A stretch of DNA of 64,000 nucleotides from assembly GCA_008632985.1 (NCBI GenBank), contig QPGO01000048.1, positions 62,001 through 126,000 of the forward strand, in the 5' to 3' direction. Position 1 is the first letter of the stretch; each line of letters starts with the position of its first letter. A program made the position numbers and the translations under genes. The notes beneath the pieces are model-generated. The model was not told where the DNA came from. It ran no database searches and saw only the letters and a program-made list of their open reading frames with translations. Source of the stretch: Psammoneis japonica. Lineage: Eukaryota. Positions 15,967 to 51,013 of the stretch are shown piece after piece.

Positions 15967-17061
15967 GTCGAATGATGATTCGTACTACTAGACCTAAGTA
16001 GACGCTACAAATTTCTTTCCGACTCCTCTCAAACTTTTGCTGCTCTATTCGAAAAACGACATGCCGTACGAGTACGTCTAAAGTGAAAAAGAAAAAGCAC
16101 AGAAGCAAATAGAGCGCAAGGCGGGGCAGACTAAAAACTTCGAAGAGACGCGGAGGATCGGAGACAGGGCGACGACATCATGGCATGGAACACAACACAT
16201 GGCACGCAGCGGGAATCCCACTCCCCCCTCGAATGCTAAAGATGTGCATACAGGTATGAAACATTACTACCGTACCGGTACGACAATACCGCGAAAAGAT
16301 TGAATGTGGTAGAAATCGCCCCCCCCTTGCTTCGCTCGCGCTTTTCCCATTCTCGCGTTCATGTGGGTTGCCCGTCTCCTTCCTAAAGTTTGTCAACTTT
16401 GAAGGCTCGTAAGTAAGGTGTGAGCTGCAGCATGAGCACGCTCTGCTTCCAGAGCTTCCACCGTGTGTGCCACCTGCCAGCGCACCACACTGCTGCAACG
16501 GCGCCACATTTGCTCCACTCCAAAGCCAGCAGCACGTTTCCTGTCACAAATTTTCACCACCAAAAACTGGATTTCTTCCACCAAACTTTGTTCCTGCCAA
16601 GCAGCAACCTCAAACGTGGTGCTCATGACATGCTGTGAGCCCTGGTGCAGCTGTGGGTGGCTCCACAATGTGGTCAAGGAAAAGATGAAATGACTGCACA
16701 CAGTCCTCACCTCAGGTTGTTGACAGTTTCACTTTTTCCTTCTGTCTTCTTCTTTTCTCTTATCTCTCTTCTCTTTTCCATTTTCCTTTGACTCTTTCTC
16801 TTCTTCTGAGCTGTGTTTCCCAGTCAAGTGTGTTCTCTCCTGCTCCAGCATTGCAGAGCACTGCTGCCCTGAGAGCAGCCACCCCAAACAAGCAATCCAG
16901 AGCAGTTGGATGAGTTGGCTGTGGTTGCCCCCTCTGGCGCTCCCCAGCCAGGGGGAAGTGAGAAGAGAAAACTTGCAATTGACAAAAGACAAGAGAAGGG
17001 GCACAAGCTGAGCTTCTTGGTTGAGCACACAACAAACTAGAGTGCCTGGAGTTTAAGAAGA

Positions 17062-17080
17062 AAGAGAGAGAGAGAGAGAG
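17062..17080 (+). repeat. (GA)n microsatellite
   Basis: agagagagagagagagag run. Confidence 0.8.
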
Positions 17081-17499
17081 ACAATGTGCGCAAATGAACT
17101 GCCCTGCAAAACAATCCTGTGAACAAAGCCATCTGTCCCCGCCCACCTCAGATCTTTTGACACAACAGCACTGACCTTGACCGTTTCAGTCACCATCATG
17201 ATGTCAACAACAGCTTCAACCAGATGTGACTGTTGCCCTTGAGAAGCATGTGATCACTTCCTGTTCTTGCACCCAGCAGATGGAAAATGACAATGAGTTA
17301 ATTCCTCACTTGGCTCAAATCAATTTGCACTCCAAACATCAAAAGCAGCTGAAAAGAGCCAGGAGTTTGCGGCTCCACAGGAGGAAATGACCGAGCTCAT
17401 TGCCCAAAAGAACCCAACAAGCTTTCAAATGCCAAGTCACCTGAGCCACACCAAAAGATCAAACTCCAAGTCATTCATCAAGAAATTGTGCAGTCATGC

Positions 17500-20140
17500 A
17501 TGAAAGCCATTTGACTGGCTGCCCCCACAGTTTTGCCATGGCAAACAGGAGCATTGCCACACCTGTCGATGCTGCAGGGGTTGTTCATCACAACTGCCAC
17601 CATAAAAACTCACTCAGGTTTGTCAAGATCTGCAAACTTGGCACTTTTTGTGCAAAGTGCAAGACAGCAAACAGCGCCCCAGATCTGCCCCAACAACTGC
17701 TGACTGCTCATGCTGACAACCAAATGGTGGGAACACAAGCTGCAGTCAGCGCTGATGAGCTGTTCTCTTTCTGGTGCAGCCACCATCAGCACCAGCCTCT
17801 CTGCAACCTTCTGCCACTTGACTGAAAATGGAGGCTGAGCTCAGCAAGATTTTCTGAGCACTTGACTGGCATGTCTTTGTCTCTCCCTTGAAGATCTGCC
17901 TGGGCTCCAAAGAGAAACACTGCATCAAGCTCCAATTGAGGAAAATGGACCCAGAGCACCATGGGTCAGATGCTTCCAAATGCACTGCAATGAGCTGTGA
18001 GGATGCTGGATGCCCAGCCAGCAGCTGATGTGCAGTCAACCTCCAAGAGCTCACTTGCAAGGAGACCAAGAAAAATGCAAAAAACCCACTCAGGACATCA
18101 GTTTGCTCTGCCACCAAGCTCTCCTTGAAATCTGTTGAACAATGACCAAACAAGCTGAGGCACCGCCCATCCAATGCTGGCACCTCATCACAAAAAGAGA
18201 AAGGCAAAAGTCCCTCATGAGGTTGTTTGTGGAAGCCACACTCACAGCAAGAACACACAACAAAGCTGATGCTGCCAACAATGCCATCACCAACACCAAC
18301 AGAAAAGCTTGCTGCTCCTCCAAATTGAAGCAGCAGTCAAAAAAGAAACAGCAGGAGTGACTGGCACTGAAGGAGAGCAGGAAGAGATTGCCAGACTCAA
18401 CCACTGCCATCACTTGTGAACAAATGTGAGTCTGAGCCCAGAGCATGATGTTGAGTGCAATTCCGAGTCAGCAATGGCACTGGCACAGTTCATGTGTGAG
18501 ATGAATGACAGACTCTGTTCAACCAGAAAGGGTGCTTTGTTTGCCCAACAGTGCCTGCTGCATGAAGGCCTGAAAGCATTTGGACAGAAGGGGCACAATG
18601 CCTCAAAGAAGGAGTCGGACCAATCCATGACAGAGTGTGCTTTGCACCAACATCTGTCAAAGACATGACTCTGAGTGAGAGGGTCAAGGCTGTGTGTGCC
18701 TTGATGTTCCTTGCAGAGAAACAAGACAGCTGGGTTAAAGGACAAATGGTCTGCAACAGGAAACCAACCAGAGAGTGGCCAGACAAAGACAAGTCAGCCA
18801 GCCCAATGACATCATTAGAAAAAGAATGTTCATTGCTGCCATTGTTGACACTGAGGAAGGACACGACATTGTGAGTGCTGATGCACCCAACATGTTCATT
18901 CAAACTCAGGTTCCAAAAGTTGAACAAGGAAACAATCGGATCATGATGAAGATTGCAGACACATGGTCCTGGAAAAGGTCAAGAGATTCCTTTGTGTGCG
19001 AGTGATTAGAGTGACACATGGCATGTTGGTTGCAGCACTGCTGTCTGGCAGAAGAAGTTCCGCAAGGACTTGGAAAAGATTGGGTTTGTGTTTGACCCAC
19101 ATGCCCCGTGCATTGCCAATTGTGTTGTCAATGGCAAACAGCACGCAGTGAGGTTTCAGGTGGATGACCTGTTGTTGAGCCACCAGAACCCAAAAGTGAA
19201 TGACAAGTTTTTAAGTTGGCTCAACAGAATGTGTGGGAGCCACAGAAAGGCTGTCATGACTTGAGGCAAGAAGCACGACTGTCCAGGGATGACCCCTGAC
19301 TTCACAGCAAAAAGTGCAAGTGTCAGCAGACATGACCAAGTGCATCAGCAAGACAACCAACCATTTCCCCAAGGCCATTGGAGCACAGATGCTGCCACAA
19401 CACCAGCTGGAGAAAACCTGTTTGACATGGTGGCGCACAAGGTTGCCGAAAGAGAAAGTGCAAACTTTCCACAAGCCACATGTGGGTGGCCAAGGGACTG
19501 TTTGTTTCCAAAAGAGGCTGGATGTGCATCCCACAATTGTTGCATTGTGCACAAGATTCATCAGAGAACCTGCCAACAAGGATTGGGGGAAACTGGTGGT
19601 CCATTGTTTGAAACATGTGAAGTGGGCATGAATGAAGTCACAACTTTCAGTGCAAAAGACCTCCAAGTCATCAAGTGGCACATGGATGCACCCTTTGCAG
19701 TGCACATGGATTTCAAGAGCTGTGCCAGAGCAGCAGTGACCATGGATGATGGAGCAGTGCAAGCTGCTTTGGATTTCAGAAGCTGAGCACCCAAAGCAGC
19801 ACAGAAGCTGAGCCAACAGTGGTCAATGATGCAATGACCATGACATCATGGAGCAAGCTCTTCTTGGAGCACCAAGGCTGTCTAACAACAAGAACACCCC
19901 ATGCCAAGACAACATGAGTGCCATCTTGCTTGAGAAAAAACAAGTGCAGGAGTGCAGGAAGCTTCCAGAGCTCTCAATGTTTGGTGCTTCTTTGTGACCA
20001 GCAATCAATTGAGAAAGGCAACCTGAGGGTGCAATGCTGTCCAACCCATGACATGTTGGGAGACTTCAAGACAAGTTGTTGCAAGGCAAGAAGTTTCAGA
20101 AATTCAAACAAGCTGTCATGGGGCATCAAATGGCAAGTGT
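17500..20140 (+). mobile_element. Degenerate Ty1/copia (CoDi-type) pol remnant: RT and RNase H, with a probable integrase remnant upstream; many stops and frameshifts
   Basis: Relics of conserved motifs: LMFLAEKQDSWVKGQMVCNRKPTREW, SADAPNMFIQT, HGMLVAALL, FDPHAPCIAN, RFQVDDLLLSH, KHDCPGMT, KWHMDAPFAVHMDFKS, QSSTEAE, CQDNMSAILLEK, CCPTHDMLGDF. The left boundary is approximate. Confidence 0.9.
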
Positions 20141-23100
20141 GACAGGCAGAGTTCCTGTCCAGTACATCAGACAAGAGTTCTGATGTGCACAGGTGAAAGA
20201 TCCCTGATTCATGGGTGAGAGATCCCCATGTGATGCCAAGACCTTCAAGCAGCCAAGAGATGAATGGTTCATGACACTTTGATGGGATGCAGAGGGTCTG
20301 CAATGCTTGTCAAGAACAAGCCAGGATGAGCACTGGAACAACTGTGCATGACATGAAGACACAGTGCTGGCCAAAGAATTGTTGGATGGACATTGAAACA
20401 GTCAGGTGGCTGTTGGACTTCACAAGGCCAACAAATCTTTATGTGAGGAAAGGAGAGAAGAACAACTGCAGCAAGAATGGGTGACTGGAGAACAGAGCTC
20501 ATCAAGCAATTCACTGAGAGTGCACTGGCAAAACCTCAGATGAGGGCCATGAGTCCTCTTCAGCAGAGACCACCAATCATTGGAAATTGAAAGGCAACAG
20601 ACATGAGAGATGCCCTGGACTGTGTCCAGCTTGTGACTTGAAGAAACAGAAGATGAGAATGCAATCACTCATTTGACATCATGGGTGGAATCAAACAATG
20701 CACTTTGACCAAAATGGGCTGAACTGTGCAAGAGAAGATTTGAGCTCATTGAGGACCCACATGTGTGTTGCATTGTAAGTTGGTCCCCAGAGATTGATGA
20801 GTGTGTGTCTGCTGCCCAACTGATGATTTCCATGCATGACAATTTTGAAACCTTGAAGAAAACATCAGGGACAAAGCTGGGTTCATGCACCTGACTGAGG
20901 AATGTTGGCAGATTGTTGGAAGTGATGTCCACAGTAACAAGTCAAATTTTGCACCAATTGGAGATTGACACGGCATTTTAGCAAGACATTTGACAAAACA
21001 ACAGTGGCAGGCTCGGGGGTGACAACTTGCAGTTGGCCCTGAGTGGACAAGATGCCAACCATCTGAGAGAACGGTTGAGTGTGAGTTGTCCCCCGTGCAG
21101 CATGGACATGGATGGGAGCTGTGGTCTCCCAAAAAGTGTCATGACAAAGCCAATGGGACATGAGACTGCTTCAGAGTGGTCAGGGATCCAACCAGAGTGA
21201 TTTTTGATGCCAGAAAATTGGCGCCATTTTTCCACCACAATGTTGAGGTTGCAAAGCTGGGTTTGACATGGACATGTCACAGAATGGAATTTTCAGAAAT
21301 GTGTCCAGAGAGAGTCAACAGATGGATTGAGCAACTGCTTGTTGGTTTGTTGGACAATGATGTGAAAGAGATTGTTCATCAAGCCTGCATCAGGCATTTT
21401 GTGGATGCCATGGAAGGACACACCCACAGGTTTCAAGATGATTGATTTCTCAGACAGCACATGTTGTGCCAATCTGTGGTGCAACAGCCAAGACATTGAA
21501 AATGCTGATGGTGCAAGTGGTGTCCCAGACAAGGAAATTGTCCAGCACCTCATCCCAAATCCTCAGAACACCAGTGAGAGCAGCAGGGGTGTGTTGGAGC
21601 ACACCTGACTTTGAGGGGCATCACGTGTGACCCAGAAATGAAGAATTTTCATCTTTTGAGCTCTGAAGTGGCAAGTTGATGCTGCTCTTTGGAGGTTTTT
21701 CTCTTTTCATTGATCACAATCTTACCAACTTTTTGTGCTCACTCTTTAAGCAAATCATCTGGTTTTGCCATCTGGATCATCATCTGGATTGTCAAGAACA
21801 ACAAGTGGCACCTGTCACTGTCCAAACAATCTGTTCAACACATGTGCGATGTTCAATGCAAGACAAACCACAGCTGAAACAGTCACCAGGGCAAGTGCAA
21901 TGATTGGCACAGGAAGCCTTGGGATTCCCTTTGGGCAACATTGACTGCCAATTCAACAACCCAAAAGTGCATCTGACCCAACTGGATGCCACCACCTTGA
22001 AGTTTGCTGACATCATCCAATGCTGCCATGCAACCTCAAAGCCAGACTCTTGAAGCTCTTTGCCAAATGCAGAGGCAGAGCCAACTTTCCAACTCAACAA
22101 TTTGCTGCACTTTCACCTTCCAAAAAAAAACCACTTTGTGTTGCTGTCCATGCCCAATGAGAGCTTGGGCCCTGTCATCATCAAAAAGACACAATGCACA
22201 TCAAAGTGGTGCTCTGCAACCATCTGGATGATGCATTTCAGGCACCAATCTCTGAGCAAGTTTGGTGCCCAAGTGCACAAATGCTGGCTCAAAAACACTC
22301 CCAGCAACTGGCTCAAAAAGCACAAAGTCAGCCTCCCATTGCAGACACAAGTTTCTGAAACATCAACTCAAGACTGACAAAAATCCCTTTTCCATTTTCT
22401 GCCTCACTTTAAAGATGCACAAGCTTCCACTGCTCTGACCCCACCTGATCATCATCTGGGCAGCAGATGACAACAAGCTCCAGCAAGTCACCAAGAGCTG
22501 CCAAAGTGGCTGCACTTTAAGAGCTTGCTGAACCTCAAGAACAAACTGATCTAGATGAGGAAATCCGCCAAGCTGGCTTCTCTTCTCATCTGCCATCAAG
22601 CAGGCTTGCTGCTCCAACATGCTCACCACCAAAAATCTCGTTGAGAAATTGCTCCTGCACCCCTTGCCAACAACGTGCACACAAACTGCCAAGATCTGCA
22701 CATGGCCATCTGGAAAATGCAGTTGCTCTTTTCAGAGCCAAAGTTTGCTCCACAACAAGAAGCCTGTGTTCTTGTTGAGTGCTCCTTCATTGCAACAAAT
22801 GGCTTTTTGCAGCTGACCAAATCATCAAAGCAGAAAACCAGACTCAAGACAAAATTGGGTCTCACAATGAATGGGCTCTTTGCAAGAGGATTTTTGAACA
22901 TGTTCGCGTGCAATTGTTGTGAATTTCTGTGTGTGCATCCACAGCATTGACAAAACTGGCATTTCAGGAAACAACAATGAAGAAACAAATGTGGCTCATT
23001 TCTGTGCACACACACCCTGACACCCAAGCAAGTCAACTGGGCTGAAGCATGCTGACAACTTGATTTGTTCATTTGTCAACTGGTGTGCATTTTGAAATTT

Positions 23101-26100
23101 TGGTTTCCAAAAATGTTTGTTTTCGGCACTGGCATTGTTTGGCACTTGGGGCATGCTCTTGTTCCATGCTGTCATTCCATTGTCTTTGCTCCCTCTGTTC
23201 TTTGAGCTGCCCCTCCCACAGTCTCTTGCAGTCTGTCTCACAGCACATGTTTCTGTTGTTGGCTGTGCTGCCATCAGAGCAATCCCTGGTGGAAGACAGC
23301 AGAGATGTTTTGAGCTTGGCATGTTTTGTGTGGCAAGCATGGCACAATGCTGCTGTTTCTGCTCACCTGTGTGCAATGTTGTGGCAATTTGTTTCTCATC
23401 CTTGGCTGTTTTTGTCAACTTGTTGGATTTTCAAAAAAGAAGAAATTTCAAAAGCACTGGTTTGTTGTTTGCTGCAAGCTCCTTGCTCTTGTGCCACACT
23501 TGTGACCTCTCACCTTTCTCATGGCATTTTTCATTGGCATGTGCAGAGCCCTGGATTTTGTTGGTGCCTTGCAGCAATGTTGTCATTGCTTGTGTGCTGC
23601 TTGGGTGCATCATCCTGTGTTTTTGTGTTGTTTTGTCTGGCGGTGATGTGGCTTTTTTGCCATGGAGCCAAGCCACCAGTTGGCCTGGTGATCATGGCAT
23701 GCATCATTCTGCAAACAGTCATTCTTCTTTGCAACCCTTTTGGCACATTTGTTTTTGAAGTTTGAGGCTGTTCAAATCAGCTTAAATCAATCATTTTGTT
23801 GGTCTTCACCAACAAAGCATTTTTGTTTGTTTGCCAGCTGGGTGTTGAACATTGTTTCACAATCAGATGCAGTGCATTTGTTTTCAAAGAAGATTGATGT
23901 CTCAGTCATTGTGACCTCTGAATCAACTCTTGTTCAGAGCAAAATCTTCACAGCTGTGCTGGTCTGAGCAGTTTGTTTGTTTGCATCTGTGGGACTCACA
24001 ACAACTTTTTTGGCTGTTGCAGCCAGCCATTCTCATCGTGTTTGAATCTTGCAGGCAACAAGAGGTCAAAAGAGGTGGCAGAGTTGGTCATGCAGGGCCA
24101 CAGCCCTGAACACAATGTGCCTGAAAAGAGCCAAAGCAGCAGCCCCTGGAGACGTGGGGGGCCACTGCAGCTGCAGCACCTCCTGCCAATGTTCTTCCAC
24201 CCCAACAAGTGGTTTCCCATGCCAGTGCAGCCATGTGCTGTTGTGACCCCATGTCACCTTGTCCCCAGAGGGTCAGTGCAGACTTGAGCTCCCCAACTTG
24301 AGAGCAAAGCAGCCCCATGATGGGCCCAACCAACCCAACAAGCAACAGCAGACTGAGAGCACTGGTGGTCTCTGATGGACCCCAGGCAACCAACATTTCA
24401 AAAACTGTGGCAGCCCTGGTTGAGTGTTGCAAGGTTGACACTGTGGTGTTGTGACCCCATGTTGCCTTGTCCCCAACAGCAGCAGACTTTGAATTTCCAA
24501 GCACCTGAGTGAAAGGATCCCATGATGGTGACAGTGCCAGCCAACCTGAAAACAGCAAGCTGAGGGCATTGGTGGTTTCTTTGTTTCTGTTTGTTGGAGG
24601 CAACAAAGAGCTGCTGTGATGAGTGGGCAAGCCATCCTCCATTTCATTCTGACCTGACATGCAGCAAGAACAGATCTTGCAGGCAGATTGGCTGGGATGT
24701 GGCTGGGATGCAAGCCACGCAAATTTTTGAGGCTTGTGGCCTTTGCAAAGCTTTCCTGCTGTGAGTTGTGGAGAGCAAGTCTTTGCAGTCAATCTTTTGT
24801 CAATGATGCAGTGGCTGCAATGTGGCATCAAACATCCATGCCAACCTTTGCACAAAAAATGAACCAATGTCAAATGAAATTCCACCACCAAAGCCTTGAT
24901 TGCAACTGCCACTCAATCAGCCCAACCCCCCATCAGCTGAGTGAATGGAGAATGCTCACCCTTGTTCTCTCCAACAAGCAAATTAGTGCCAGCACTTTGA
25001 CAAGCATGGCATCCAAACAACCTTTGCAATCTTCTGCAAGAGAGACAAAAATGGTGCATTTACAGAGCAACAACCAAGAGCTGTGCAGAAAGTGGACACG
25101 ATTTGGTGTTCACTGGCAGAAATCCAATGCCAAAGCCAAAACAGTGCACACCGCACATGCATGGACCCAAACAAAAACACAAAATAACTCACAACCATGT
25201 CAGCCTCAATGACTTGGCACCCACCAAAAATGTTTGCAGCACATTTGTTGTCAATGGATGGCTTGAAAGTGGTGCTCAATGAAGTGCAAATTGACCCTCA
25301 CTGCATCTGGGTTGATGTCAGGATTTGTCAAATTGTGATGTGATGATGATGAGGATGGGTCAGTTGGCTGAGCATTTGTGGCAGCAGGAAGCATGAATGA
25401 CAACAGGGGGATCAAATGATGACATGGCCATTGTGAGGGGCTGCTCAACATTGTGAATTGGGGTCTGGAGTGCAAGCTCACATTGGCAGAAGGACAGGAT
25501 CCAAACTTGCAACTGTTTTGTCTGTTAAAAGAGGATTGGTCCAACCATGTTGTGAGCAGTTGTTGTGAATGTTGGAGAGTGGCCGCAAGCAGGGAAGACA
25601 TGACTCCCTTCAAAAGTTTCTCAAGCTCAATTGATGGTGGGTCATTTGGGTTGCATGGCACATGTGGAGGAAGATGGGGTCACACAGGGGCTCTGACAAC
25701 TCCAAAAATGGAGCTGGTGCTTTGTGGGAAAGTGGCTTCAGTTTGTCAAGAAGTGACACTCCAGGGACATGCTGAGCTGAGTGTTGCTGGGCACACAAGC
25801 ACCAACTCATTTCATTTTTGTGCAGTCTTTGCATGGGTGCACGGGCCTTCTTGGAGTGAAATGGTGAGGTTCACTGAGTTGACTTTTTGTGAGATCTGGG
25901 CTTGTGACCCAGGTGGTGGCCCTGTCAGCGTCACTCAGCCTGAAGGCAAATGCTGCCCAGCAGTCATCATTGGTGATTTGCCAGATGCACAGTGGCATGC
26001 CAAAGGGGTTGATGGTGTGCCCCCACACTGTCCCATTGGACTGGCACCAACAAGCAGCATCACCAAATGTGCAAACAGTTGTTTTTTTCACAATGACTCA

Positions 26101-28264
26101 CAGTGCTTCAATGAGAGCTTCCATCTGCAACATGTTTTTGTGCTTGATGAGAAGATCAATTGATGAGCAGAAATGAAATTTTTACATGTGTGGTTGCACT
26201 CTTGACACGTGCAACACATTTTCAAAACTCAACCAAGGTGGCCACTGTCACTTAAATTCCAAACAATGTTTTGACACTGGCTGTGTTTTGGTCACAAATC
26301 TGGCATTGCAAAAGGCATCATTTTGGTCTGCAGTTGGGTTTTCCAGTGGTTGGGGATTTGCAATGTTTTGTTTTGTGGCCCAGCATTTTGTTTAGAGTTG
26401 ATTCATTTGTTTGGAAGAGCTTCAGCTCAAATGTCCATCGCATGATTTTGTTTTGTTTCTGCTGCATTTTTGTTTCTTTGTTGCATCCTTTGGCACCACA
26501 CAGCTCAGCCACCAACCCACTGTTCACTCAACAATGGTGTGCCCCTCTGTTGCAGTCTCTCCTGTGTCTCTGTTGCATGTCTGACAACAATGAGAAGAGT
26601 CTCCTTTTTCAAAATGCACATCAGATGGGCTGGGTGACCATGCATCACAGCCACTCCTGCAACCTCAGGAACCTCCTTTGGGACCCTTTGCATTTTGTGG
26701 GCTCCTGCTCATGGTGTGGCAGCCAGAATCTAAGTCTCTTTTGCTGCTGCCAGAGGGAGGAAGATGTGTTTGTCATTTGTTGTTGGCACAATGCTGGGCC
26801 GTCAATCTTGCTTCTTTGAGCATGAAGTTGAGCTTTCAAGGCCCACTTTCTGGGGCAAAATTTGAATTTTTTTACACCATGGGCACCCAAAGAGCCAGCA
26901 AGGCCAGCCAACCCCTGCCACTTTTCCTTCACACTTGTGAGAAAGGCTGTGATGCAGTGCAAGCGACAACAAGTTGGAGCAGAGAGGAGCCAATGTGTGC
27001 AGCCAGATGTGCTGCAAACACGAACATGGACAAAAAGAAAGAGCAAAGAGGGTGAGAGGGCTCATGAGAGACTCTTGGCCCAGCCAGGCCCCAGTGCAGC
27101 AATGTGGCTTGTCTCTTTTCTCTTTGTTCCTTCTCATCAACAGGGGCCAAAAGCGCTGAGCCACACCGCAGAGAGGCGCAAGCGCATGCTCTCCACCACC
27201 CTCTCATGCAACAAACAGCAGAGGCAGTGTCAAGAGAGTCATGTCTCATGCACACCACACATGACACAAGCAATGCAACATGCAATGCATCATCATCAAC
27301 AAGTGTCTGTCTCTGTGCACCTTCACAGCACCAAGCACCCCCAAGTGGCGGCCGGAGAGCCTCACAACCCTGGGCTGTGCCGCTGGGGCAAACTGCCCCA
27401 TAAAAATGCAGTGCGAGTTTCTGCCAGCCGTGTGGCATTTCTTTGTTATTTGTGTTGGCAGTCATGAATGTAAAAGTTTCTTCGTTTGCGAGTGCCGTAC
27501 GAGCATGATGTGGGCCCTAAATGTTAGACTGCCGCACCGCATGTGATCGAAAGACATTTTCTCGAAACAGCTGGTGGGGCATCTGCAAGAGACTTCAGGC
27601 ACGCAATGACGCACCGAGAGAGGCTGACGTTTCTTTGTTGGTTGACATCCCCATTAAATGAATCATTTAATAATTTTTCGGAATTTTGTTTAACAATGCA
27701 CTAGAGTCGTTAATTGGTTGTATTGACAGAAGATGAATGGGCAATGTGGGGACTTCTACTTCACTTCCGTGCAACGCAGAAGCCACTTATGCCGCCGTAC
27801 CGTATATACCTGAATGTACGTAAGATGGCGTTCGTTCAAATCAATCACCTTTTACAGTATTTTGATCGACATGCTCACATCCAACGAAACGAAGAACACC
27901 GAATCGGAACTACTTAGCCCTACAACCAAAGAAGTGCTGAAAAAACTTGCGAGATAGAGCACCAAGCAGTGGGCGGGGAAGTGGGATACTATTTTTGAGG
28001 GAAAAGTGAGGGTATTCTACGATAACTAAAAACAACACTACAAATTCAAAAAATAATCAAACAGAAATTCAAAATTGCAGAAGATGAATTCGGCATCTTC
28101 GGATAGGTCAGGAGCAGGTGTGCCGCCAAACTTCTCAGCATTGACGTTCCTCTGGGCGCTGCGTCAGCAACAATTCAGGATTCGTCGGTATCCTCTCGAC
28201 ACTTCTATGGAACAACAAGTTCGAACGCGTCTCTTAACTCGTCTTCTTTTCGGAGGCGGCAACG

Positions 28265-29484: not shown

Positions 29485-29793
29485 TGAAGCGCAGTCGATA
29501 CACACTAGCTACAGTATGCCGGTGCTTGCTTCGTTTCCAATGCCCTTGTGCATACCAAGGTATATGCACATCAACAGGCGTTCAATCTAAAGCTCTTTCT
29601 CTACACGCCTGCTGGGTTAGGTGCGTTCTTTCATATCAACAACTACATACTATATATTCAAAGGCGACAACTGAAGGGTAACCAGCGCTACAACAACAAT
29701 AATACATTCCACTTTCATCCCCTCTAGTAGAGGGTAGCTTAAAGAAAAACTACTAGGAACACGATTTGGGTCAACTCTGGACTAATGGTTGAT

Positions 29794-31206: not shown

Positions 31207-32395
31207 TTCGTCTTGGTACCGGAGGGCAAATGCAGCAGAAGTGGTGCCGATGCCGATCCAAGAGATAGATTGTGTAGCCTCTAGAGTAGCGAGCGAGCAT
31301 TTGTACTGAAGCAGTCAGTCAATCAGTGCGGCTTGAGCGTTTTAGAGATCGCTGGACAGACCGTACTAGAAGTACGTAGTTTCTCTTGCCTTCGCGCCCT
31401 ACTGTACGTGCGCGTACGTACGATTGATGTCGCACTGGCGATCAGACCTTCTTCGACGGATCTGTTGCGCTTTCGTGAAGACCTCTCCCACTTCAGATTG
31501 GGCGCGCCGCATGCAGCGCACAGACTGCTCTGGCTCTACTCCAGAGAGCAGAGTCTGTCCACAGTGCCTGTGTGGAGTGGTTTTGAAGCAGTTGCGGTGC
31601 CTGAACCGCTGCAATGGTGATGACGCCATGGTGGAATGACCAACGCCGCGTGCCGTTGCGTTGTGCACTCTGATTGCACTGCACTCCGACCCTTCTTTTG
31701 ATTTGTTTGGCAGAAGCAATGAGGAAAGAAAGGAGAGAGACAAGAAGCTTTGGGATCTTCTGCAGCATCATGTGGTGCTTGGTGAAGGAGCCGACCCAAG
31801 CACGAGGATCTCTCACTTCAATTGCAGGCTCTTGCCAGACAAAGAACTTGTGATTTGCTGCTGGAGTGTGTTGGAACATCTGCGTCATCTGTCGATGCAT
31901 TCGTGGACCCAATGGAGTCTCTCTGGTCATCCTTGTTGGAGGGCATTGTCGATGGAAACAGCTCTTGTGGCACTCACATCTGCAACAAACATGTGTCTTG
32001 GATTCAATGAATTGTCTTTTGAGGCCATGATGAGGCTTTGGAAGTCCTTGTGAGACAGCATTGAAGCCCCAAAACAGGACAAGCTTGAGGATCCTCCTTC
32101 TTCATCCAGCAATGATGGGGTCCAAGAGTTGAGAAAGGACACCGCTTTCTTGTGGCCGCCGTCATCCCAGGAAACAGAAAATTCATTGAAGCACTTGTGT
32201 CCAGAGATGGATGTGGGGAGTCAGGCATCTCATGAGGACACAGAGATGAAGGTTCAAGGCACTCTGAAGTGCGATCCAGAACTTCCTGCTGCGCACTTCT
32301 TGTGGTTCATCAATTGCCTCCACAATGATGAGAGGGTTGGAGCAATCAATGCACTCCACCAGTGCTTTGATTGCACCATGATTCAAGACCGGAAG

Positions 32396-32671
32396 TGACA
32401 GAAATTGAAGGCAAATGGCAAGAATTCAAACAACAACTCCTTGCTGCTGTCTGAACAGCAGATGAGTCTCCGCTCAGAGACCGTTGCAGGAGCCAAAAGA
32501 CGTGCAAGTCGGCACAATCGGGCCACTGTTGTCATTCTTGTGAGCCTTGTGGCTCGAAAGCAAACTGCATCGCGCGCGAACACGCGGAACTAAAGCACAC
32601 AAAACTGTGCGCGGCAAACCAAACAGCGCATGACATTTCGCGCGCACCCAAATCCTGTTCAAATCCTGTCA
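32396..32671 (-). repeat. 3' LTR (276 bp)
   Basis: + strand begins tgacagaaat and ends aaatcctgtca (TGACAG inverted termini). Bases 32396-32514 match 35911-36029. Confidence 0.85.
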
Positions 32672-32680
32672 CTCCCCAGT
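32672..32680 (-). promoter_or_regulatory. Polypurine tract end
   Basis: Minus strand reads ctggggag|tgaca, the typical copia GGGGAG-TG junction. Confidence 0.7.
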
Positions 32681-33224
32681 TTGCTTGAGGAGCCACAGAA
32701 ACAGATTCGACTTTGGATTGACCAAAGAACTTTGGAGTCAAGGCACCAAAAACATGAGGAGACAAGAAAGGATCAAAGTGGGTCATCTTGAGATGAGCTG
32801 CGTCTCCCCAATTGCAGATGTCGTTGTGCTTTTCAAAGCTCAAGGCACACTTGGGATCTTGTGGGATTCCACATCCGCACTTGCAATGGAAGGAGCAAAG
32901 CTTGGTCTGGTTGACAATGTTGAACGGCGGGGCAACATTGCAGGCGGCATGGTGTTTGCACGACTCGGGGAACAGAGCAAGCATGAGTTCAAAGGCACAA
33001 GCGGTGGCCTTGTGTTCCACCAATCCGATTGCAAGCTCAGCTGCATCTCCTGAGAGACTGATCCAATTGGAGAAACGAGTCTCAAGGTGCAAGCCTTCGG
33101 GGATCGGATTGGAGCAAGACATCTTGTGGTGCAAGGCTGCAGACATCTGATTGGGGCAACCAGTCCCATGCTGCAAGGCTTCTGGGATCCAAAAGGACTT
33201 GCCAGTCTTGTGACACGAGTCTTC

Positions 33225-33920
33225 GGGGATCCAATCAGGAGGCCAAGTCTTGAGGTGCGAGACTTGGGGGATCCAATCAGGAGGCCGAGTCTCGTGGCGC
33301 AAGACTTGAGGGATCCAATCCGGAGGCCGAGTCTTGAGGTATGAGACGTGGAGGATCCAATTGGGAGGCCCGGTCTCGAGGCACGAGACGTGGAGAGTCC
33401 AGTTGGGAGGCCTGGTCTCAAGGCACGAGACTTGGGGCATCCGATCAGGAGGCCCAGTTTCGACGTACGAGACTTGAGGCATCCAATCAGGAGGCCCAGT
33501 CTCGAGGTACGACACTTGGGGCATCCAATCAGGAGGCCCAGTCTCGAGGTGCGAGACTTGAGGCATCCAATCAGGGGGCCTGGTCTCGAGGTACGAGACT
33601 TGAGGCATCCAATCAGGAGGCCTGGTCTCGAGGTGCGAGACTTGGGACATCCAATCAGGAGACCTGGTCTCGAGGTACGAGACTTGGGGCATCCAATCAG
33701 GAGGCCCAGTCTCGAGGTACGAGACTTGAGGCATCCAACCAGGAGGCCTGGTCTCGAGGTACGAGACTTGAGGCATCCAATCAGGAGGCCCAGTCTCGAG
33801 GCACGAGACTTGAGGCATCCAATCAGGAGGCCTGGTCTCGAGGTACGAGACTTGAGGCATCCAATCAGGAGGCCTGGTCTCGAGGTGCGAGACTTGGAGC
33901 ATCCGGTCAGGAGGCCTGGT
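33225..33920 (-). repeat. 42-bp coding tandem array, ~16 units (ETRPPDWMPQVSYL)
   Basis: Unit catccaatcaggaggcc(tg/ca)gtctcgaggtacgagacttgagg on the + strand, head to tail with no spacers. Confidence 0.95.
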
Positions 33921-34233
33921 CTCATGGTGCGATGCTTGGAGGATCCGAAGACAACAAAGCTGCTTGGATGTCCTGAACTCCCCATCTGATGAACCGGTTG
34001 AACTGTTGTGAACAGATTCAATGACGGGAAAAGGAGGCCTCGAGACTTGAGGCATCCAATCAGGAGGCCTGGTCTCAAGGTGCGAGACTTGGAGCATCCG
34101 GTCAGGAGGCCTGGTCTCATGGTGCGATGCTTGGAGGATCCGAAGACAACAAAGCTGCTTGGATGTCCTGAACTCCCCATCTGATGAACCAGTTGAACTG
34201 TTGTGAACAGTTTCAATGACGGGAAAAGGAGGC
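33846..34233. repeat. 195-bp tandem duplication (65 aa) within the LTR element
   Basis: 33846-34037 is nearly identical to 34041-34232. Confidence 0.9.
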
Positions 34234-35895
34234 TCCCCATCAGGAGATGCGAGAAGCAAGTTGTCATCTCCATCACTTCCCAGACGAAGACTGTGAAGGG
34301 TGACAGTGGTCAACATGTGGAGGTTGGCAGCATGTGGTTTGCGGGGTGCAAAGACTGCAGCTTTGGAAGCCATGGGTGGAGTGTCCCAACTGGTCTCGAA
34401 GTGCGGGCCTGTGCAAGGGCTGCAATCCTGCACTGGGCCGAGGTTGCTTGCAGGCGGGTTGGTCAAGACATGTGGGGTGCGACTGACACCACTTCTAGGG
34501 GACACCTGAGTGGCGGCACAGTGCAAGGCTGGTGTCAAAATGGCACTGGGTTCACCTGGTTTGGATGGCAAGGGACTCGGCACAGGTGCGGAGGGTGCTG
34601 CGCCAGTGGCCAGAGAGGTCAAGTGGTCCGGACCAAGGCGGCAGTTGCGAAATTCGTCGGGTGTGAGCAACTGGGGTTCATTGGTCACATCATCACCATT
34701 GCAAACTTTGACAAAGTAGAAGCTGATCAAAGCTGCCAGGAGGTTTCTGTGGGTCCATGGCAAAGGCACTGCATTGGCGCCATCTCTGCAAGTGAGGGCG
34801 TCAATTTGGGTGGGTGAGAACGTGAACAACTCCTCGCACGATTCAATCCCATTGATGGACAGGGCAGAATGAAGAGGGCTGTCATCGTCTTGATTGAGCA
34901 CAGTGCCTAGAATGCATTTGAAGCTTTCGGTTTGTTGCTGTCACGTGAGAACCATGACGGAGGACGGTGCAGTAGAAACAAAAGACAGGAACCAATCTAG
35001 AGCGCGATCTTGACTTGGAGTTTTGACTTGGAACTTGGCTTGAAAAAGACTTGACTTGAGCTAGACTTGACTTGAAATCTTGGACCATCTTAAAATCAGA
35101 AGTCGCCGGGTTGTGCTGTCCCGTTCGTTGTCAAGTGCTAAACTTCCCATCCGGTCCGTAGAGTTGTGCCGGCACGTCCGAACCCGCAGCTGGTGGTGCT
35201 TTGGGTTGCTTGCGAGCGGAGCAGCGGGTTGTTAACCCCTGCAGGCAAGCTGACTAGAGGTGGACAAGACCCCCGAACCGTTCTCATTTTATGTCGGTTG
35301 GATTTCCCGATCAGGCTGGCCAGTTGACGCAGGCGTTGGGCGCTGTCGACGAACGAACAAATGCGGGAAAAAACACCCTCACCCCAACGTAGGCTGCAAT
35401 CACGGCTGCTTGCTCTCACAGTCGTCCTCGTGGACCTAGTGGAACTGTAGAGCACCAGCAGTCCGGGGTAGATCAGGTACAATGGACTCGGTGTGCTTGT
35501 AGAGTGGCAGCAAAGCCGCAGTCCAAAGAGTGGGTACAAGTTCTTGGCCGTGAAGATATGTATATATATATGTCTTCAGCGACGAAGATTCTTGAATGTG
35601 TAGGGTTCTTGACCGTTAACCGTTGAATGGGTATACTAAGGGATGAGGATCAAGGATAGACTTGGATATGACCGTTGAATGTATGTCTTCAGCGATGAAA
35701 GGTAGTGTGATCAATCCAGATATCCAGCGGTAAGGAGACTTGACGGTGACGTTAAATTCCTGCCGATGCCTGGTATTGAACGCGCGTAGACTTGCCGATG
35801 TACGTAGAATATATACGGAGGTCCACGCAGAATTGAAAAGGCGTCGTCGGTAAATCAACGACGACGATGGCGGTTGCTCAATGGGTTGACAATGA

Positions 35896-35910
35896 GCAAG
35901 ACTGTTAATC
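35896..35910 (-). promoter_or_regulatory. Putative primer-binding site complementary to the tRNA-Asn(GUU) anticodon arm (half-tRNA priming)
   Basis: + strand gcaaga-ct-GTT-aa-tc directly abuts the 5' LTR. Confidence 0.6.
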
Positions 35911-36029
35911 TGACAGAAATTGAAGGCAAATGGCAAGAATTCAAACAATAACTCCTCACTGCTGTCTAAACAGCAGATGAGTCTCCGCTCAGAGACCGTC
36001 ACAGGAGCCGAAAGATGTGTGAGTCGGCA
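35911..36029 (-). repeat. Truncated 5' LTR (119 bp retained)
   Basis: 109/119 identical to 32396-32514; similarity stops abruptly at 36029. Confidence 0.85.
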
Positions 36030-37454
36030 GTCTCATTGTTCGCTCTTCACTCATCTTTTGGCAACAGGGATCTTTCTTGCAATGCCACAGAGGAGGCTGT
36101 CTGTGTTGCTCAGGCAAGCAGTGACAAAGCATGTGTGGCATGTGCTCTTGGGTGGTTGTGTCACAACAAAGCAAAGCAAGGCACGGGGAGTCAGAGGAGC
36201 TCTTGGAGTGATGTTTGAGTCATGCGGCCAACACAGCAAACTGCGTTCCCTTGCTGGAGGTGTCAACATGGAGCTTGCAAGACACTGTCTCATGCCACCC
36301 TCTCATGATCATCAAGAGCTTTAACAACCCCATGGATTTGAGAGCACAGTTGCTGCAAGGCAATGCTTGGACAGGGCTGGGCTCATCCAAGGCAGGCAGA
36401 AAGCCATTGTGCAACCGTGTGCCACATCTTGCCTTGTCAAAGAGCTCTCCATCAGTGTCTGCAGACCAAACAGGATGCAGTGGATGATCCTGGATAGTGG
36501 GCTCCTTTGGGAGCATTGAAGATGGAAAGGTGATGACAGAATCGTCCCAATCCAGTTTGTCACAAGTGTCACAGCAATTGCTGAAATTGTCAGCATCGTC
36601 CAGTTTGGCCATCTCAACAGAAATCTTGCACCACTCTCTCTGAACTGCAGGACTTGGAACGAATGGAAACATGCATGACAGCAGCAGCAGTGCCAGATGT
36701 GTTCTCAATGGGACAACAATGGAACCCGGCACAGACTGGCATTCCTCTGGTGTGGGGCAGTCATCACAATCCCAAGTGCAAGTCTCACGATGATCAAGAC
36801 TTCAGCATTGATCCCACCCAGCAAAGCCGCGGCAATGCCAATGTCACAAGGGTGACCTCTGTCATGTTAGAGACAATGCTTCAGGAGTGGACTGTTGTCA
36901 GAGTTGTTGAATGCACAAACCCCTTGGCGAAAAAGAAATCAACCAGTCATCTTCTTGCCTCACTCAGTCATTCCCAGTCAACCGATTTGGAAGAAGAGGG
37001 GACACACAACCTTTCTCCAATTCCCATGCTTGTCCATTGCATGAAAACAAGAATGAAATTGAGGTTTGTGTCCCATGTGACAGGTCCATTTCCATCACCA
37101 TTCATCATCCTGATGACACGATTGTGAGGAAAATTCAAGAAACTCACATGGTGGGTGCAGATTTCACTTTTCATTCTAAACCTTTCAGGCATTGACAAAT
37201 GATGCACAAACATTGGCATTGGCCAGACAGAGCTGGTGATTCCAACAGAGCATGTGCAAGCATGTGGTGCTGTGCACTGCAGTCAACAGAGGAAAAGAAT
37301 TAGCCACGCTGAGGAAGTGGTGATGACCATGAGCCCAACAATGGCAAAAGAGGACCAAGACAGTCAACAGAGACAAAGAGAAACAGCAGATGGACTGGAG
37401 AAAGCCACACTGGTTTTGCCCACAGGGACTTGTTGGTGTCATGGACCACAATGT

Positions 37455-37772
37455 GAGGATGCACTTCTTGTAAAAAAAGCACCATTTGAGACGGTGTGGC
37501 AGAACAGCCAGAGCATGAGTTGATCCTTGGCCACCGAAGTGGTCCCCGCAACAAGCGAACCCAATCGGGATTTAGAGACAGGTGGACCAGCTGAGAGATC
37601 CATGCCAGTTTTGCCCATTGGGACTCAGTGGCAACTCAGACCGTAAATCTGAGGATGCAACCCTTGTAAAACAGGCACCATTTGAGATGGTGTGGCAGAA
37701 TGGCCAGAGCACGACTCGATCCTCGGCTGCCAAAGCGGTCCCCGCAAAAGAGCGGACCCAACCAGGATTTGG
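37455..37772. repeat. Diverged ~196-bp tandem duplication
   Basis: gaggatgca..cttgtaaaa..gcaccatttgaga.ggtgtggcagaa occurs at 37455 and 37651. Confidence 0.8.
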
Positions 37773-38903
37773 AGCATGTCCATGCAAGATGGCACCACAT
37801 GGTGTGAACTCAGTCAACATGACAGAGAAGGGTGGGAGGTGCATCCACAAGACAGTGCCAAATGGCATGGTGAAATGGCGCCAATGCACGAGACACTCCC
37901 GACTGCGCAAAAGCAGACCACGCAAGGGATTTTCTGTCAGCTGACAGGAAGGAAGAAAGCCCATTTCAATTTTCATTGTTGGCATCTGCTTGGAGACACC
38001 TTGACAGTTCCATGGTGTCTCCCAACCTGCCAGACAATGAGGGATCCCTTGGGCTGGCCTCATTTCTGGTTTTGCTTGCTCGTCTCATCCATCGTCCATC
38101 CATCATCCGCCCATCATCCTTCCTTCACCCGCTCATTCCTGCTTTCATGCAGTGCTCTTGGTCCAGCCAAGGAGGTCCTCTCATTCTTGGGCTTAGAGTC
38201 TTAGCCACGATTGCGAGATTTTTTGTCTTGCCATCATCTCCGCTCTTTTTGAGCTCAGCGCGTTTTGTGTCTGGTCGTCGCATGGCACATTCTTTGCGCT
38301 CAGGCTTGCAAGATTTTTCATCTTGCCATTGTCCATTCTTTTTTTAATCAGCGGATTTTTAGTCTGGCCATCATGCAACAATTGATTGTCTGGTTGTCAT
38401 CCACAATCCGTGCACTTGCAAGTTGCAAGGTGTCCGTTTCGTTCGTTCTTCTCTCTCTCTCTCTCTAAAAAACAACATGTCAAAACTCAAGCACAGTGGT
38501 TGCTCGTCACTCTGAATGACATCAACAAGCCATCCATTGACACAAACACACAAACAGCAATGTGGGTGAAGAACAAGCATGCAGGAATTTGGCGTGTCGA
38601 TTCAAAACCCGTCCTGTTGTCCTTCCTGCAGATTGTTCAGACGGGAGGAGAGTGTGACTTCGCTCAGGTCACCATAAACAAAATTTTTGTGCCTTCCTCG
38701 CTGAAATTAGTCCTGGTAAAGTTTCCGGCCTTGGTGAATACAAAGTGGACACAGATGACCGGAAGAACCACTGTGCCATTAATGACATTCTCATCTATCT
38801 CAGTCCGTCTTCAGTCAGTCTGTCCGTCATCAATCCTTGTCGTCGTCCCTCCGTCGTCCGGTAGTCCGGAAGGTGGATGCAATACAGTAATGGACGATGG
38901 ACG

Positions 38904-50783: not shown

Positions 50784-51013
50784 GGCGACCCAATCATATG
50801 TATGAACGGCTCCGATTTGCCGATTCCTCGCGTATGTCCGTCGTACGCGAACATGATGATTACTGTATTCCATGACGCATAGAAGTAATCATACGCGTAG
50901 ATTGAATATACCTGCGTGGCGCCACCTTTTGATCGTCGCGGTCGTCGGGTCGATGATGGCCTGTCACTTTTTTCGGCTGGGCGTTTGAGTTGTGACGTAC
51001 TGAGTACTTGACC

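Follow-up and report, generated by a model that had tools for sequence, protein, structure and literature searches.

A terminal repeat pair in a diatom genome and the probable in situ, deamination-type hypermutation of an abundant gag-derived element

Differences between the two repeat copies

The stretch of Psammoneis japonica DNA analyzed here (64 kb; the window) contains two copies, A and B, of a 119-nt direct repeat on either side of a gag-related open reading frame (ORF) (Table 1). The locus raises the question of how the two copies came to differ as they do and whether they are the ends of a mobile element. A first-pass annotation had described them as an LTR pair with 10 mismatches at 7 sites, all of them transitions. 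When the alignment was repeated, the same result was obtained: the 119 nt aligned without gaps at 91.6% identity, and 10/10 mismatches were transitions that lay within pyrimidine-purine (YR) dinucleotides. The states at the seven sites were also exactly as annotated (copy A/copy B: CA/TA at 32434, TG/CA at 32442-3, TG/TA at 32453, TG/CA at 32485-6, CA/CG at 32495, CG/TG at 32501, and CA/TG at 32505-6). YR dinucleotides cover 54 of the 119 repeat positions, and no change was found at the 65 non-YR positions. The probability that seven independent events would all be YR transitions is ~2e-4 at a transition share of 2/3 and 2e-6 at a share of 1/3, and if 10 mismatches were placed at random, three or more adjacent doubles would arise with a probability of 0.028. 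No third copy of the repeat was found within the 64-kb window.

Copy B keeps two TA dinucleotides, at 35949 and 35968, where copy A has CA and TG. Three CG sites are kept in both copies and two in one copy, and there are three TG/CA doubles; by simple arithmetic, ~0.2 visible doubles would be expected if one hit rate, fitted to the CG sites that were kept, applied throughout. The TA sites were more heavily hit than the CG sites. Because a raw divergence of 8.4% accompanies 0/65 non-YR changes, LTR-divergence dating would overestimate the age of the pair, as the annotation had warned.

Table 1. Features of the locus, with positions in the window
Feature	Position	Strand	Remarks
Island 1	16419..27346	.	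10.9 kb; few copies; no Pfam domain
Island 2	about 31662..34904	.	Contains copy A and the ORF
Terminal direct repeat, copy A (119 nt)	32396..32514	-	Inside hypermutated tract; TA count 0; 3' LTR on the minus-strand reading, if the 32396-36029 element is so read
Gag-related ORF	32532..34955	-	ATG at 34955-34953; stop 17 nt before copy A
42-bp tandem array and 195-bp duplication	33037..34233	.	Inside the ORF
Unmutated tract	34908..36041	.	Leader and part of copy B, inside the high-copy element
Terminal direct repeat, copy B (119 nt)	35911..36029	-	5' LTR on the minus-strand reading
Island 3	36048..38590	.	CG o/e 0.33, TA o/e 0.09

Hypermutated islands and their copy number

The signature of the repeat pair recurs in three islands, which segmentation delimited sharply, to within tens of bases. 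In the islands, up to 91-99% of CG and TA is lost (about half in the case of CG in island 2), TG and CA rise to o/e values of 1.4-1.9, and the 12 remaining dinucleotides, the base composition, and the G+C content are unchanged. The change is thus restricted to four dinucleotides. In the normal DNA of the window, CG o/e is 1.00 and TA o/e is 0.57. Depletion is strongest in island 1 (CG o/e 0.09, TA o/e 0.04, TG o/e 1.89, CA o/e 1.79), where 59 CG and 30 TA are left among 2599 YR sites, or 3.4% versus 40-42% in normal DNA. Island 2 has nearly lost its TA (o/e 0.07) and about half of its CG (o/e 0.53). The host genes around the islands are unaffected. The recurrence of the signature in all three islands bears out the annotation's proposal of fast, context-specific change in situ at sites derived from TA and CG.

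Repeats inside the islands were compared as well. In island 3, the pair at 37413-37577 and 37608-37774 has 19 of its 26 transitions at YR sites, with five CA/TG doubles. The young units of the 42-bp array also differ mainly at YR sites (TA/TG/CA/CG); its 17 tandem units show 33 YR transitions, 23 other transitions, and 17 transversions. The non-YR changes among these tandem units count against a hypermutation account, as do two further observations. The old pair at 24234-24373 and 24442-24580 in island 1 (72% identity) has an ordinary spectrum, with 4 of 27 transitions at YR sites and 19 transversions. In addition, the 1.1-kb tract at 34908-36041 resembles ordinary DNA (CG o/e 0.99, TA o/e 0.69) although it lies inside the high-copy element, and such an account leaves this tract unexplained.

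The evidence is drawn entirely from this 64-kb window and the contigs of a single sample. Depth was taken from contigs of sequencing run X1, whose library type is not on record; 5715 contigs were placed on a 20-kb stretch. Summed X1 depth over 31841-36509 was 6,000-90,000 by bin, against a single-copy depth of ~57, so that the element is present at very high copy number, ~1000 times single-copy depth. The high depth seems to run ~400 nt past both repeats, a point against reading them as LTRs. Island 1 had a depth of 63-576, and all three islands are either above single-copy depth or gag-related, which links the signature to repeats.

Domain searches of island 1 were negative: 0 of 121 ORFs of at least 55 aa matched Pfam, 18 of the island's ORFs gave sub-threshold matches only, and a word-based search found no homologues of the ORF at 24091-24912. 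Since no recognisable transposon or viral domain was found in the islands, it is depth and the gag-related domain that mark them as repeated or foreign DNA.

The X1 contigs also provided a comparison with the assembly. Their differences from the 20-kb stretch were mainly transitions (A>G 65, C>T 64, G>A 64, T>C 84; 8-17 in each transversion class), and within the islands, the variants were swaps between YR states. X1 contigs at single-copy depth matched island sequence over 333 nt with no differences and over 929 nt with 5 differences. The pattern is not confined to the assembly.

Nature of the repeated element

The two repeats have the same orientation and run from TGACAG to GTCGGCA, with the TG...CA ends of an LTR. 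In other copies, a real junction with unrelated sequence lies at position 35911. An element of very high copy number lies between the two repeats, and these features, together with the gag-related ORF in a fitting orientation, speak for the LTR reading. Other hallmarks were not recognised. Directly outside the repeats, the sequence is GGAAG on the left and GTCTC on the right, so that there is no target-site duplication of 4-6 bp, and YR transitions cannot reconcile the two. A TGG-type primer-binding site was not seen by eye in either orientation; no tRNA genes were found in the window, and hence there were none to compare with such a site. Where a polypurine tract would be expected, the sequence read by eye was only weakly purine-rich (AAGAATGACAACAG, preceding copy A on the minus strand). 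Six-frame Pfam scans of 31501-38600 on both strands, with stops translated as X, detected no pol domain (protease, integrase, or reverse transcriptase) and no gag domain; their sole match was TPR-like. With neither a target-site duplication nor a primer-binding site nor pol detected, the LTR reading is only partly supported.

Further searches around the element were likewise negative. Rfam over 31000-39000 gave a chance-level match only, and Pfam assigned no family to the 802-aa ORF or its neighbours. When the two flanks were joined in silico, no convincing interrupted gene appeared. In other copies, the repeat's first 15 nt are followed by the motif ATGACTGGGTGGAAG, which does not occur in the window. 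A degenerate 38-mer of the repeat had 0 matches in metagenome contigs.

The ORF has a TGA at codon 5 (34943-34941), after which the frame is open for 802 aa. The family has arginine at this codon, as do most relatives, consistent with a CGA-to-TGA nonsense change. A phmmer search with the ORF returned 23 matches (E values of 5e-10 to 1e-3). The family match is confined to ORF residues 1-117, which hhalign aligned to the family with a probability of 99% (E value of 5.7e-18). No gag Pfam family was found in the 23 relatives (E ≤ 0.001) or in 7 long ones (E ≤ 5). A 395-aa family member was modelled (mean pLDDT of 74), and its residues 140-349 were compared with known capsids, giving Z scores of 11.8 for the Copia capsid (184 aligned, rmsd of 9.6), 8.9 for Ty1 CA-CTD (90 aligned, rmsd of 2.9), 8.0 for PNMA2, and 5.8 for HIV-1 CA; unrelated rows scored at most 4.6. 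Foldseek with the modelled member reached only an E value of 0.3. On the basis of this model, longer members of the family are predicted to fold like copia/Ty1 capsids, and the window ORF would carry their N-terminal domain. The capsid part was not detected in the window ORF, in which the tandem array takes its place.

Other homology searches added little. A word-based search with the ORF N terminus against proteins of 441-1404 aa found nothing, and a protein atlas gave weak leads only, to diatom hypothetical proteins. A second metagenome scan with one relative (P0125) returned three loci, namely, its own 2.4-kb contig and two weak matches that are probably spurious; the contig has no Pfam domain downstream of the gene. 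In the explanation favoured below, the element would be a gag-derived, non-autonomous, retrotransposon-like unit whose ends are the two 119-nt repeats.

Direction of change and its explanation

The direction of change was read from other copies and from the protein family. At 32524, the window has CA and the family has TA at 66,648 of 98,580 depth, and three loose-end consensus sequences of other copies have TA or CG at positions that are TG or CA in the window. In alignment A1, the window has cysteine at a position where 16 of 20 relatives have tyrosine (TAY to TGY). A related gene of another diatom has a TA o/e of 0.71, versus 0.09 here. The other copies and the conserved protein family point, as the annotation had supposed, to TA and CG as the ancestral states. 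One conserved histidine (CAY) is cysteine (TGC) in the window; since this change needs two steps in one dinucleotide, TG and CA may also interconvert.

TG and CA were balanced and interspersed, and strand-coordinated tracts were looked for and not found (runs test for TG versus CA in the three islands, z = -0.71, +1.19, and +1.12). The two strands are hit independently. Of the TA left in islands 1 and 3, 40/44 are flanked as TTA or TAA, compared with 639/1721 in normal DNA (Fisher p = 2.8e-13). TTA and TAA are relatively spared.

We give a probability of about 60% to the reading that the two repeats are the ends of one abundant gag-derived diatom element that has undergone deamination-type hypermutation in situ. 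The differences between copies A and B would have been made in place by a process aimed at repeated DNA. Its targets would be the two self-complementary pyrimidine-purine dinucleotides, TpA and CpG, each converted to TpG or CpA according to which strand is hit. Hits would be made independently at each site and on either strand of the duplex, with near-complete conversion in old copies. From the pattern we infer both chemistry and enzyme. The favoured chemistry would deaminate adenine in TpA, the route proposed for Bigelowiella natans, and also cytosine or 5-methylcytosine in CpG. One ADAT2-like deaminase acting on both A and C in DNA may be responsible, or there may be two systems that are drawn to the same silenced chromatin. 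The CpG loss could also be ordinary methyl-CpG decay, separate from the TA process.

Two ordinary processes might instead account for the islands, namely, slow methyl-CpG decay of densely methylated transposons and a general avoidance of TpA, with copies A and B coming from separate insertions or brought together by recombination among family members, their differences then being old family polymorphism. The missing target-site duplication is in keeping with this, as are the ~1000 family copies that could serve as recombination partners, the excess of CG-involving over TA-involving single-step differences in the three island repeat pairs (12 versus 3), and a TA o/e that is already 0.57 in normal DNA of the genome. 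However, TA o/e values of 0.04-0.09 with sharp bounds far exceed general avoidance, the young element loses TA faster than CG, and the residual TA obeys a flanking rule. The complete lack of non-YR differences would also be unexpected for unrelated members, since other copies differ from this one by ~5% in the leader. We regard this reading as a whole as unlikely. Slightly less likely again is a single TET/JBP-type oxidase acting in silenced repeats. Its substrates would be the 5-methyl groups of TpA thymine and of CpG 5-methylcytosine, and its formyl or hydroxymethyl products would mispair or be repaired erroneously to give T-to-C and C-to-T changes. Such an enzyme would unite the two targets, both of which are 5-methylpyrimidines in self-complementary YpR steps, and its products would be symmetrical across strands. 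5-Formyluracil and 5-formylcytosine mispair, and 5-hydroxymethyluracil in dinoflagellates shows a TpA preference. Against this, the only experimental precedent for the TpA signature is interpreted by its authors as adenine deamination.

The remaining alternatives are poorer still. A long-read basecaller might miscall modified CpG and TpA bases in silenced repeats as TG or CA. Small indels between the window and the X1 contigs (3 gaps in 3.7 kb of single-copy DNA) do resemble an unpolished long-read assembly, and there are several TG/CA doubles at which X1, a run of unrecorded library type, disagrees with the window at full depth. However, the X1 contigs reach 3.7 kb with an even depth of ~57, as accurate reads would; the X1 island contigs are equally poor in CG and TA; and their variants swap YR states with no wholesale restoration of CG or TA. 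Strand-random miscalls should also yield TA and CG in the consensus, and we regard such an artefact as improbable. That the islands are viral or transferred DNA that was free of CG and TA before integration, for instance, to evade a host nuclease or sensor, would agree with their sharp bounds and with the lack of homologues and Pfam domains, but it is the least credible of these readings. Homologous positions take all four YR states in repeats, tandem units, paralogous contigs, and the family; conserved tyrosine and arginine codons have been destroyed; and the element's own leader is normal in CG and TA.

For hypermutation in place, the closest precedent is B. natans, and the preprint on this alga was the sole relevant item in a literature search that found no report of the signature in diatoms. 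In that work, TpA changes to TpG or CpA in integrated viral DNA at ~6e-7 per site per generation, a de novo rate raised ~1000-fold in mutation-accumulation lines (Mettrop et al., bioRxiv 10.64898/2026.01.13.699255). Clusters depleted of TpA and enriched in CpA and TpG are enriched for RT and DDE domains, the targets are NCLDV and virophage DNA, and the authors read the process as genome defence by adenine deamination; they also cite ADAT2 enzymes able to deaminate A as well as C in DNA (bioRxiv 10.64898/2026.01.13.699255). The two cases share the strand-dependent conversion of TpA to TpG or CpA and its limitation to regions of foreign or mobile DNA. They differ in host (a chlorarachniophyte there, a diatom and hence a stramenopile here), in target (integrated NCLDV/virophage DNA versus a high-copy retrotransposon-like repeat), and in extent (TA o/e of 0.45 in the B. 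natans NCLDV region versus near-total depletion at 0.04 here). The B. natans changes are almost exclusively A/T to G/C, lacking any G/C to A/T component, whereas CpG is lost here too (91% in island 1); the main text of the preprint mentions neither CpG nor flanking or trinucleotide context, and TTA/TAA sparing is seen here. The pattern has so far been reported only for TA, in one unrelated alga; the diatom lineage, the added CpG loss, and the TTA/TAA sparing are new.

A wider reading can be put forward only tentatively: diatoms may possess a RIP-like defence with a new chemistry, in which one repeat-aimed system, possibly an ADAT2-like dual adenine/cytosine DNA deaminase, erases TpA and CpG on duplex DNA, spares TTA/TAA, stops at sharp chromatin bounds, and has a common origin with the TpA hypermutation of Bigelowiella. 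If so, such a defence would span at least the SAR supergroup. Hypermutation in place, if real, would mean that diatoms, which are major marine primary producers, defend themselves against mobile DNA in this way; it would tie the single 2026 chlorarachniophyte observation to a second lineage and make an ancient eukaryotic deaminase defence directly testable. Such genomes will upset dating by LTR divergence, clustering of repeat families, k-mer detection of repeats, and homology searches, because every copy becomes unique and loses Tyr and Arg codons. A pattern of missing CG and TA, with TG and CA doubled and the other dinucleotides untouched, would itself serve as a cheap, annotation-free detector of silenced foreign DNA, and the TTA/TAA sparing and the unmutated leader offer concrete handles on the enzyme and its targeting.

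Several better-known processes resemble the pattern in part. RIP in ascomycete fungi changes C to T, mostly in CpA, and so creates TpA and lowers G+C. The islands share with RIP the repeats riddled with dinucleotide-context transitions, the disabled transposons, and the unreliable dating from repeat divergence; they nevertheless do not fit fungal RIP, as they are depleted of TpA with G+C unchanged. Methyl-CpG decay, as in vertebrates, plants, and diatoms with CpG-methylated transposons, likewise turns CpG into TpG or CpA on either strand and leaves TG/CA sister pairs. It cannot, however, remove TpA, and the young element lost TA before CG (o/e 0.07 versus 0.53). ADAR and APOBEC editing also produces clusters of deaminase transitions in mobile or viral sequence, with a 5' U preference for ADAR. 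Their substrates are RNA or single-stranded cDNA, and the runs that they leave are coordinated and biased to one strand, in contrast to the balanced and interspersed TG and CA found here, and unlike their products, the tracts at this locus run on into flanking old repeats.

Substitutions in the repeat pair and islands of CG and TA loss

Pairwise alignment of the two 119-nt direct repeats, copy A and copy B, was gapless over 119 nt and contained 10 mismatches at 7 sites. All mismatches were transitions, each swapping one pyrimidine-purine (YR) dinucleotide (TA, CG, TG, or CA) for another; the site types were CA/TA, TG/TA, CA/CG, CG/TG, and three TG/CA doubles. The 65 non-YR positions were identical in the two copies. 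Seven random events would all be YR-position transitions with a probability of ~2e-4, even allowing for a 2:1 bias toward transitions, and 10 randomly placed mismatches would include three adjacent doubles with P = 0.028. The realignment thus reproduced exactly the mismatches described in the first-pass annotation as transitions at TA- and CG-derived sites. Self-comparison of the 64-kb window revealed no third copy of the repeat.

Composition was read in 2-kb and 500-bp bins, and island bounds were set by two-state segmentation over YR sites. Three regions had CG and TA nearly absent and TG and CA almost doubled. In island 1, 59 CG and 30 TA remained in 2,599 YR sites (3.4%), versus 40 to 42% across the remaining window. 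Base composition and the other 12 dinucleotides were the same in the islands as in normal DNA. Since only CG and TA are down, only TG and CA are up, and the rest is unchanged, this is the pattern predicted if CG and TA were converted into TG and CA. The differences between the repeats are a local sample of this window-wide pattern. Copy A lies within island 2, copy B spans one boundary of the 1.1-kb normal-composition tract, and two TA retained in copy B were both lost from copy A. The core inference of the first-pass annotation holds: sites derived from TA and CG change rapidly in situ, which skews LTR dating.

Features of the window, with observed/expected (o/e) dinucleotide ratios
Feature	Coordinates (strand)	CG	TA	TG	CA	Remark
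Normal DNA		1.00	0.57	1.09	1.14	
Island 1	16419-27346	0.09	0.04	1.89	1.79	
Island 2	31662-34904	0.53	0.07	1.42	1.55	Interrupted where some CG survive
Island 3	36048-38590	0.33	0.09	1.57	1.79	
Normal-composition tract	34908-36041	0.99	0.69			
Copy A	32396-32514					
Copy B	35911-36029					
ANAPC5 match	36012-36168 (+)					Frame 3
Tandem array	43275-44092 (-)					69-bp (and 138/201-bp) units
eIF3L	49099-50888 (-)					Split over two overlapping ORFs
Control outside islands	59866-61096					Ordinary spectrum
Direct repeat, 132 nt	59869/60051					80%; within control
Inverted repeat, 288 nt	60051-60337/60806-61093					84%; within control
SRP54	61943-63564 (+)					Split over two overlapping ORFs

The DNA is from a diatom. 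The host genes flanking the islands (CNNM, DEAD helicase, kinase, eIF3L, and SRP54) were ordinary, and the best named relatives of the eIF3L ORF came from Nitzschia, Bacillariaceae, Cylindrotheca, Pseudo-nitzschia, and Seminavis, at 57 to 63% identity. SRP54 is bacterial-type and probably plastid-targeted. The split eIF3L and SRP54 ORFs suggest short introns or assembly frameshifts. The 69-bp tandem array lies in a 579-aa ORF with a terminal villin headpiece domain and is TA-free solely through its repeat unit.

Direction of change and properties of the process

Several observations indicate that the ancestral dinucleotides were TA and CG. Position 32524 is CA in the window and TA in 66,648 of 98,580 (two thirds) of the family depth. 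The loose-end consensus of other copies reads ACTACATCG, AACTAAAC, and CGCGCGA, versus ACTGCATCG, AACCAAAC, and CGCATGA, respectively, in the window. In an alignment of the window's gag-like ORF with its protein relatives, codon 5 is a stop versus Arg in most relatives (CGA to TGA), and a Cys in the ORF stands opposite Tyr in 16 of 20 relatives (TAY to TGY); the first 240 residues contain a single Tyr. An environmental diatom contig carries a related gene with a TA o/e of 0.71, versus 0.09 here, indicating that the gag-like family is not natively TA-poor. A contrary case is a conserved His (CAY) that is Cys (TGC) in the ORF; because this change needs two steps in one dinucleotide, some TG/CA traffic probably runs via a CG or TA intermediate.

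Three CG in the repeat pair were kept by both copies and two by one copy. If one CG hit rate is fitted to these sites, ~0.2 visible doubles are expected by arithmetic, and three are present, so TA sites struck in both copies are the likelier source of the TG/CA doubles. A TA origin also agrees with island 2, which has lost its TA but retains half of its CG.

At codon 5, one relative has Trp and one has Gln, the products expected of CGG decay to TGG or CAG. In a related contig, L001, the CG o/e was 0.39 inside the gene versus 0.92 outside. A similar CpG decay may act on the gag-like family in other diatoms.

Across the three islands, TG and CA products were equally frequent and randomly interspersed (runs test, z = -0.71, +1.19, and +1.12); in normal DNA they were, if anything, more clumped. 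Long single-strand tracts, which are of the APOBEC or ADAR kind, were not found in the islands. The substrate appears to be duplex DNA struck one site at a time. Of the 44 TA left in islands 1 and 3, 40 were TTA or TAA, versus 639 of 1,721 in normal DNA (Fisher P = 2.8e-13). Site counts give a loss of ~99% for VTAB and ~82% for TTA/TAA. The remaining CG favoured GCGC and CCGC contexts over TCGA, and residual CG/TA sites were evenly spread along island 1. The repeat pair 37413/37608 fits the signature (19/26 transitions at YR sites, 5 doubles). An old pair in island 1, 72% identical, had an ordinary spectrum (4/27 transitions at YR sites), and the units of the 42-bp tandem array within the gag-like ORF had 33 YR transitions, 23 other transitions, and 17 transversions. 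Repeat pairs outside the islands had an ordinary substitution spectrum.

A high-copy, probably gag-derived element

Contigs from four runs of one sample were placed on 18501-38500. Single-copy depth was ~57, as in one contig spanning 28048-31769, and summed depth across 31841-36509 was 6,000 to 90,000 by bin. On this 20-kb stretch, 5,715 contigs were placed at 90 to 100% identity, differing mainly by transitions. The summed depth and these diverged contigs indicate that the repeat pair is part of a family with about 1,000 diverged copies; two tiny runs contained this element exclusively. Depth in island 1 was 63 to 576, with contigs skipping and rejoining segments, like paralogous repeat fragments. 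Position 35911 was joined to island-1-like sequence in one contig and preceded by 906 foreign bases in another. These differing joins mark 35911 as a true element end, and 32396 likewise by homology. High depth seems to reach ~400 nt past both repeats, so the element may lie within another abundant repeat. In sequencing run X2, which is RNA-like, a 2,995-nt contig (28048-31246) lacks 28401-28491 and 28698-28813, apparently two short introns adjoining the kinase gene.

The ATG of the gag-like ORF (34955-34953, minus strand) starts M-V-L-T-stop-Q-Q-Q, and an 802-aa open frame after this early stop terminates 17 nt short of copy A. Exhaustive phmmer with the first 240 ORF residues returned 23 relatives (E, 5e-10 to 1e-3), all matching residues 1-134, mostly at the relative's own N terminus. 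Profile comparison gave 99% probability across residues 1-117, and Pfam contains no model for the family. A 395-aa family member was modelled with a mean pLDDT of 74. Its residues 140-349 matched the Drosophila Copia capsid (Z 11.8; 184/184 aligned; rmsd 9.6), the Ty1 capsid C-terminal domain (Z 8.9; 90 aligned; rmsd 2.9), PNMA2 (Z 8.0), MOAP1 (Z 7.2), and HIV-1 CA (Z 5.8), with unrelated helical proteins at Z ≤ 4.6, although middling Z scores are easily reached by helical folds. Given this ease and a Foldseek E value, taken alone, of 0.3, the modelled family is likely, rather than proven, to be a copia-type Gag.

The window's ORF retains only the N-terminal domain, and a 42-bp tandem array occupies the expected capsid position. 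A search of both strands of 31501-38600 found no pol or other transposon domain. The repeats lack a flanking target-site duplication (GGAAG versus GTCTC), and neither a PBS nor a PPT is clearly recognizable. The LTR label of the first-pass annotation is plausible but, lacking a target-site duplication, a clear PBS/PPT, and pol, incomplete. We read the element as non-autonomous, gag-derived, and LTR-type, on the minus strand, and put the probability that both repeats are its own LTRs at about two in three.

The normal-composition tract lies within this hypermutated element and spans the ORF's upstream leader and part of copy B; other family copies likewise have TA and CG across it. Just beyond copy B, within island 3, the Pfam ANAPC5 (TPR-like) match (E = 3.5e-8; 33.9 bits versus a cut-off of 23) may be a decayed gene or chance from skewed codon content.

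Basecalling artefact and known systems

Run contigs agreed with the window inside the islands (333 nt with 0 differences and 929 nt with 5), although modified bases are able to mislead long-read basecallers and, if misread, would make the islands an artefact. These contigs resemble accurate reads, with even depth and one 3.7 kb long, and across the islands they showed no wholesale CG/TA restoration. Small indels separate them from the window; their listed differences were YR swaps (seven TG/CA doubles, four CG-to-TG/CA, two TG-to-CG, and one TA-to-TG). Because the library type of the runs is off record, we keep a small probability for an artefact.

At several places in island 1 (within 18501-27300), the only contig placed, at full single-copy depth, has CA for the window's TG or the reverse (e.g., 18870-1, 21159-60, and 24645-6). 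Allelic, strain, or paralogue variation, or choices made in assembly, may explain these swaps.

The signature is best classed with a form of targeted hypermutation described only very recently; its chemistry and targeting here are inferred. The one relevant work found by full-text literature searches was a 2026 Bigelowiella natans preprint (bioRxiv 10.64898/2026.01.13.699255). According to its main text, integrated giant-virus and virophage regions in mutation-accumulation lines mutate ~1000x faster than the remaining genome, nearly all changes being A-to-G or T-to-C and every one falling on TpA. Its authors propose an ADAT2-like DNA adenine deaminase and cite ADAT2 enzymes able to deaminate A as well as C in DNA. 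CpG, flanking context, and diatoms receive no mention in that main text. The TpA half of the window's signature matches the hypermutation as described there, whereas the window also has CpG loss, far deeper depletion, a flanking-base rule, a diatom host, and a high-copy retrotransposon-like family as the target. Methyl-CpG decay accounts for only the CG half of the signature. Fungal RIP is a functional analogue, yet its effect on TpA is the opposite.
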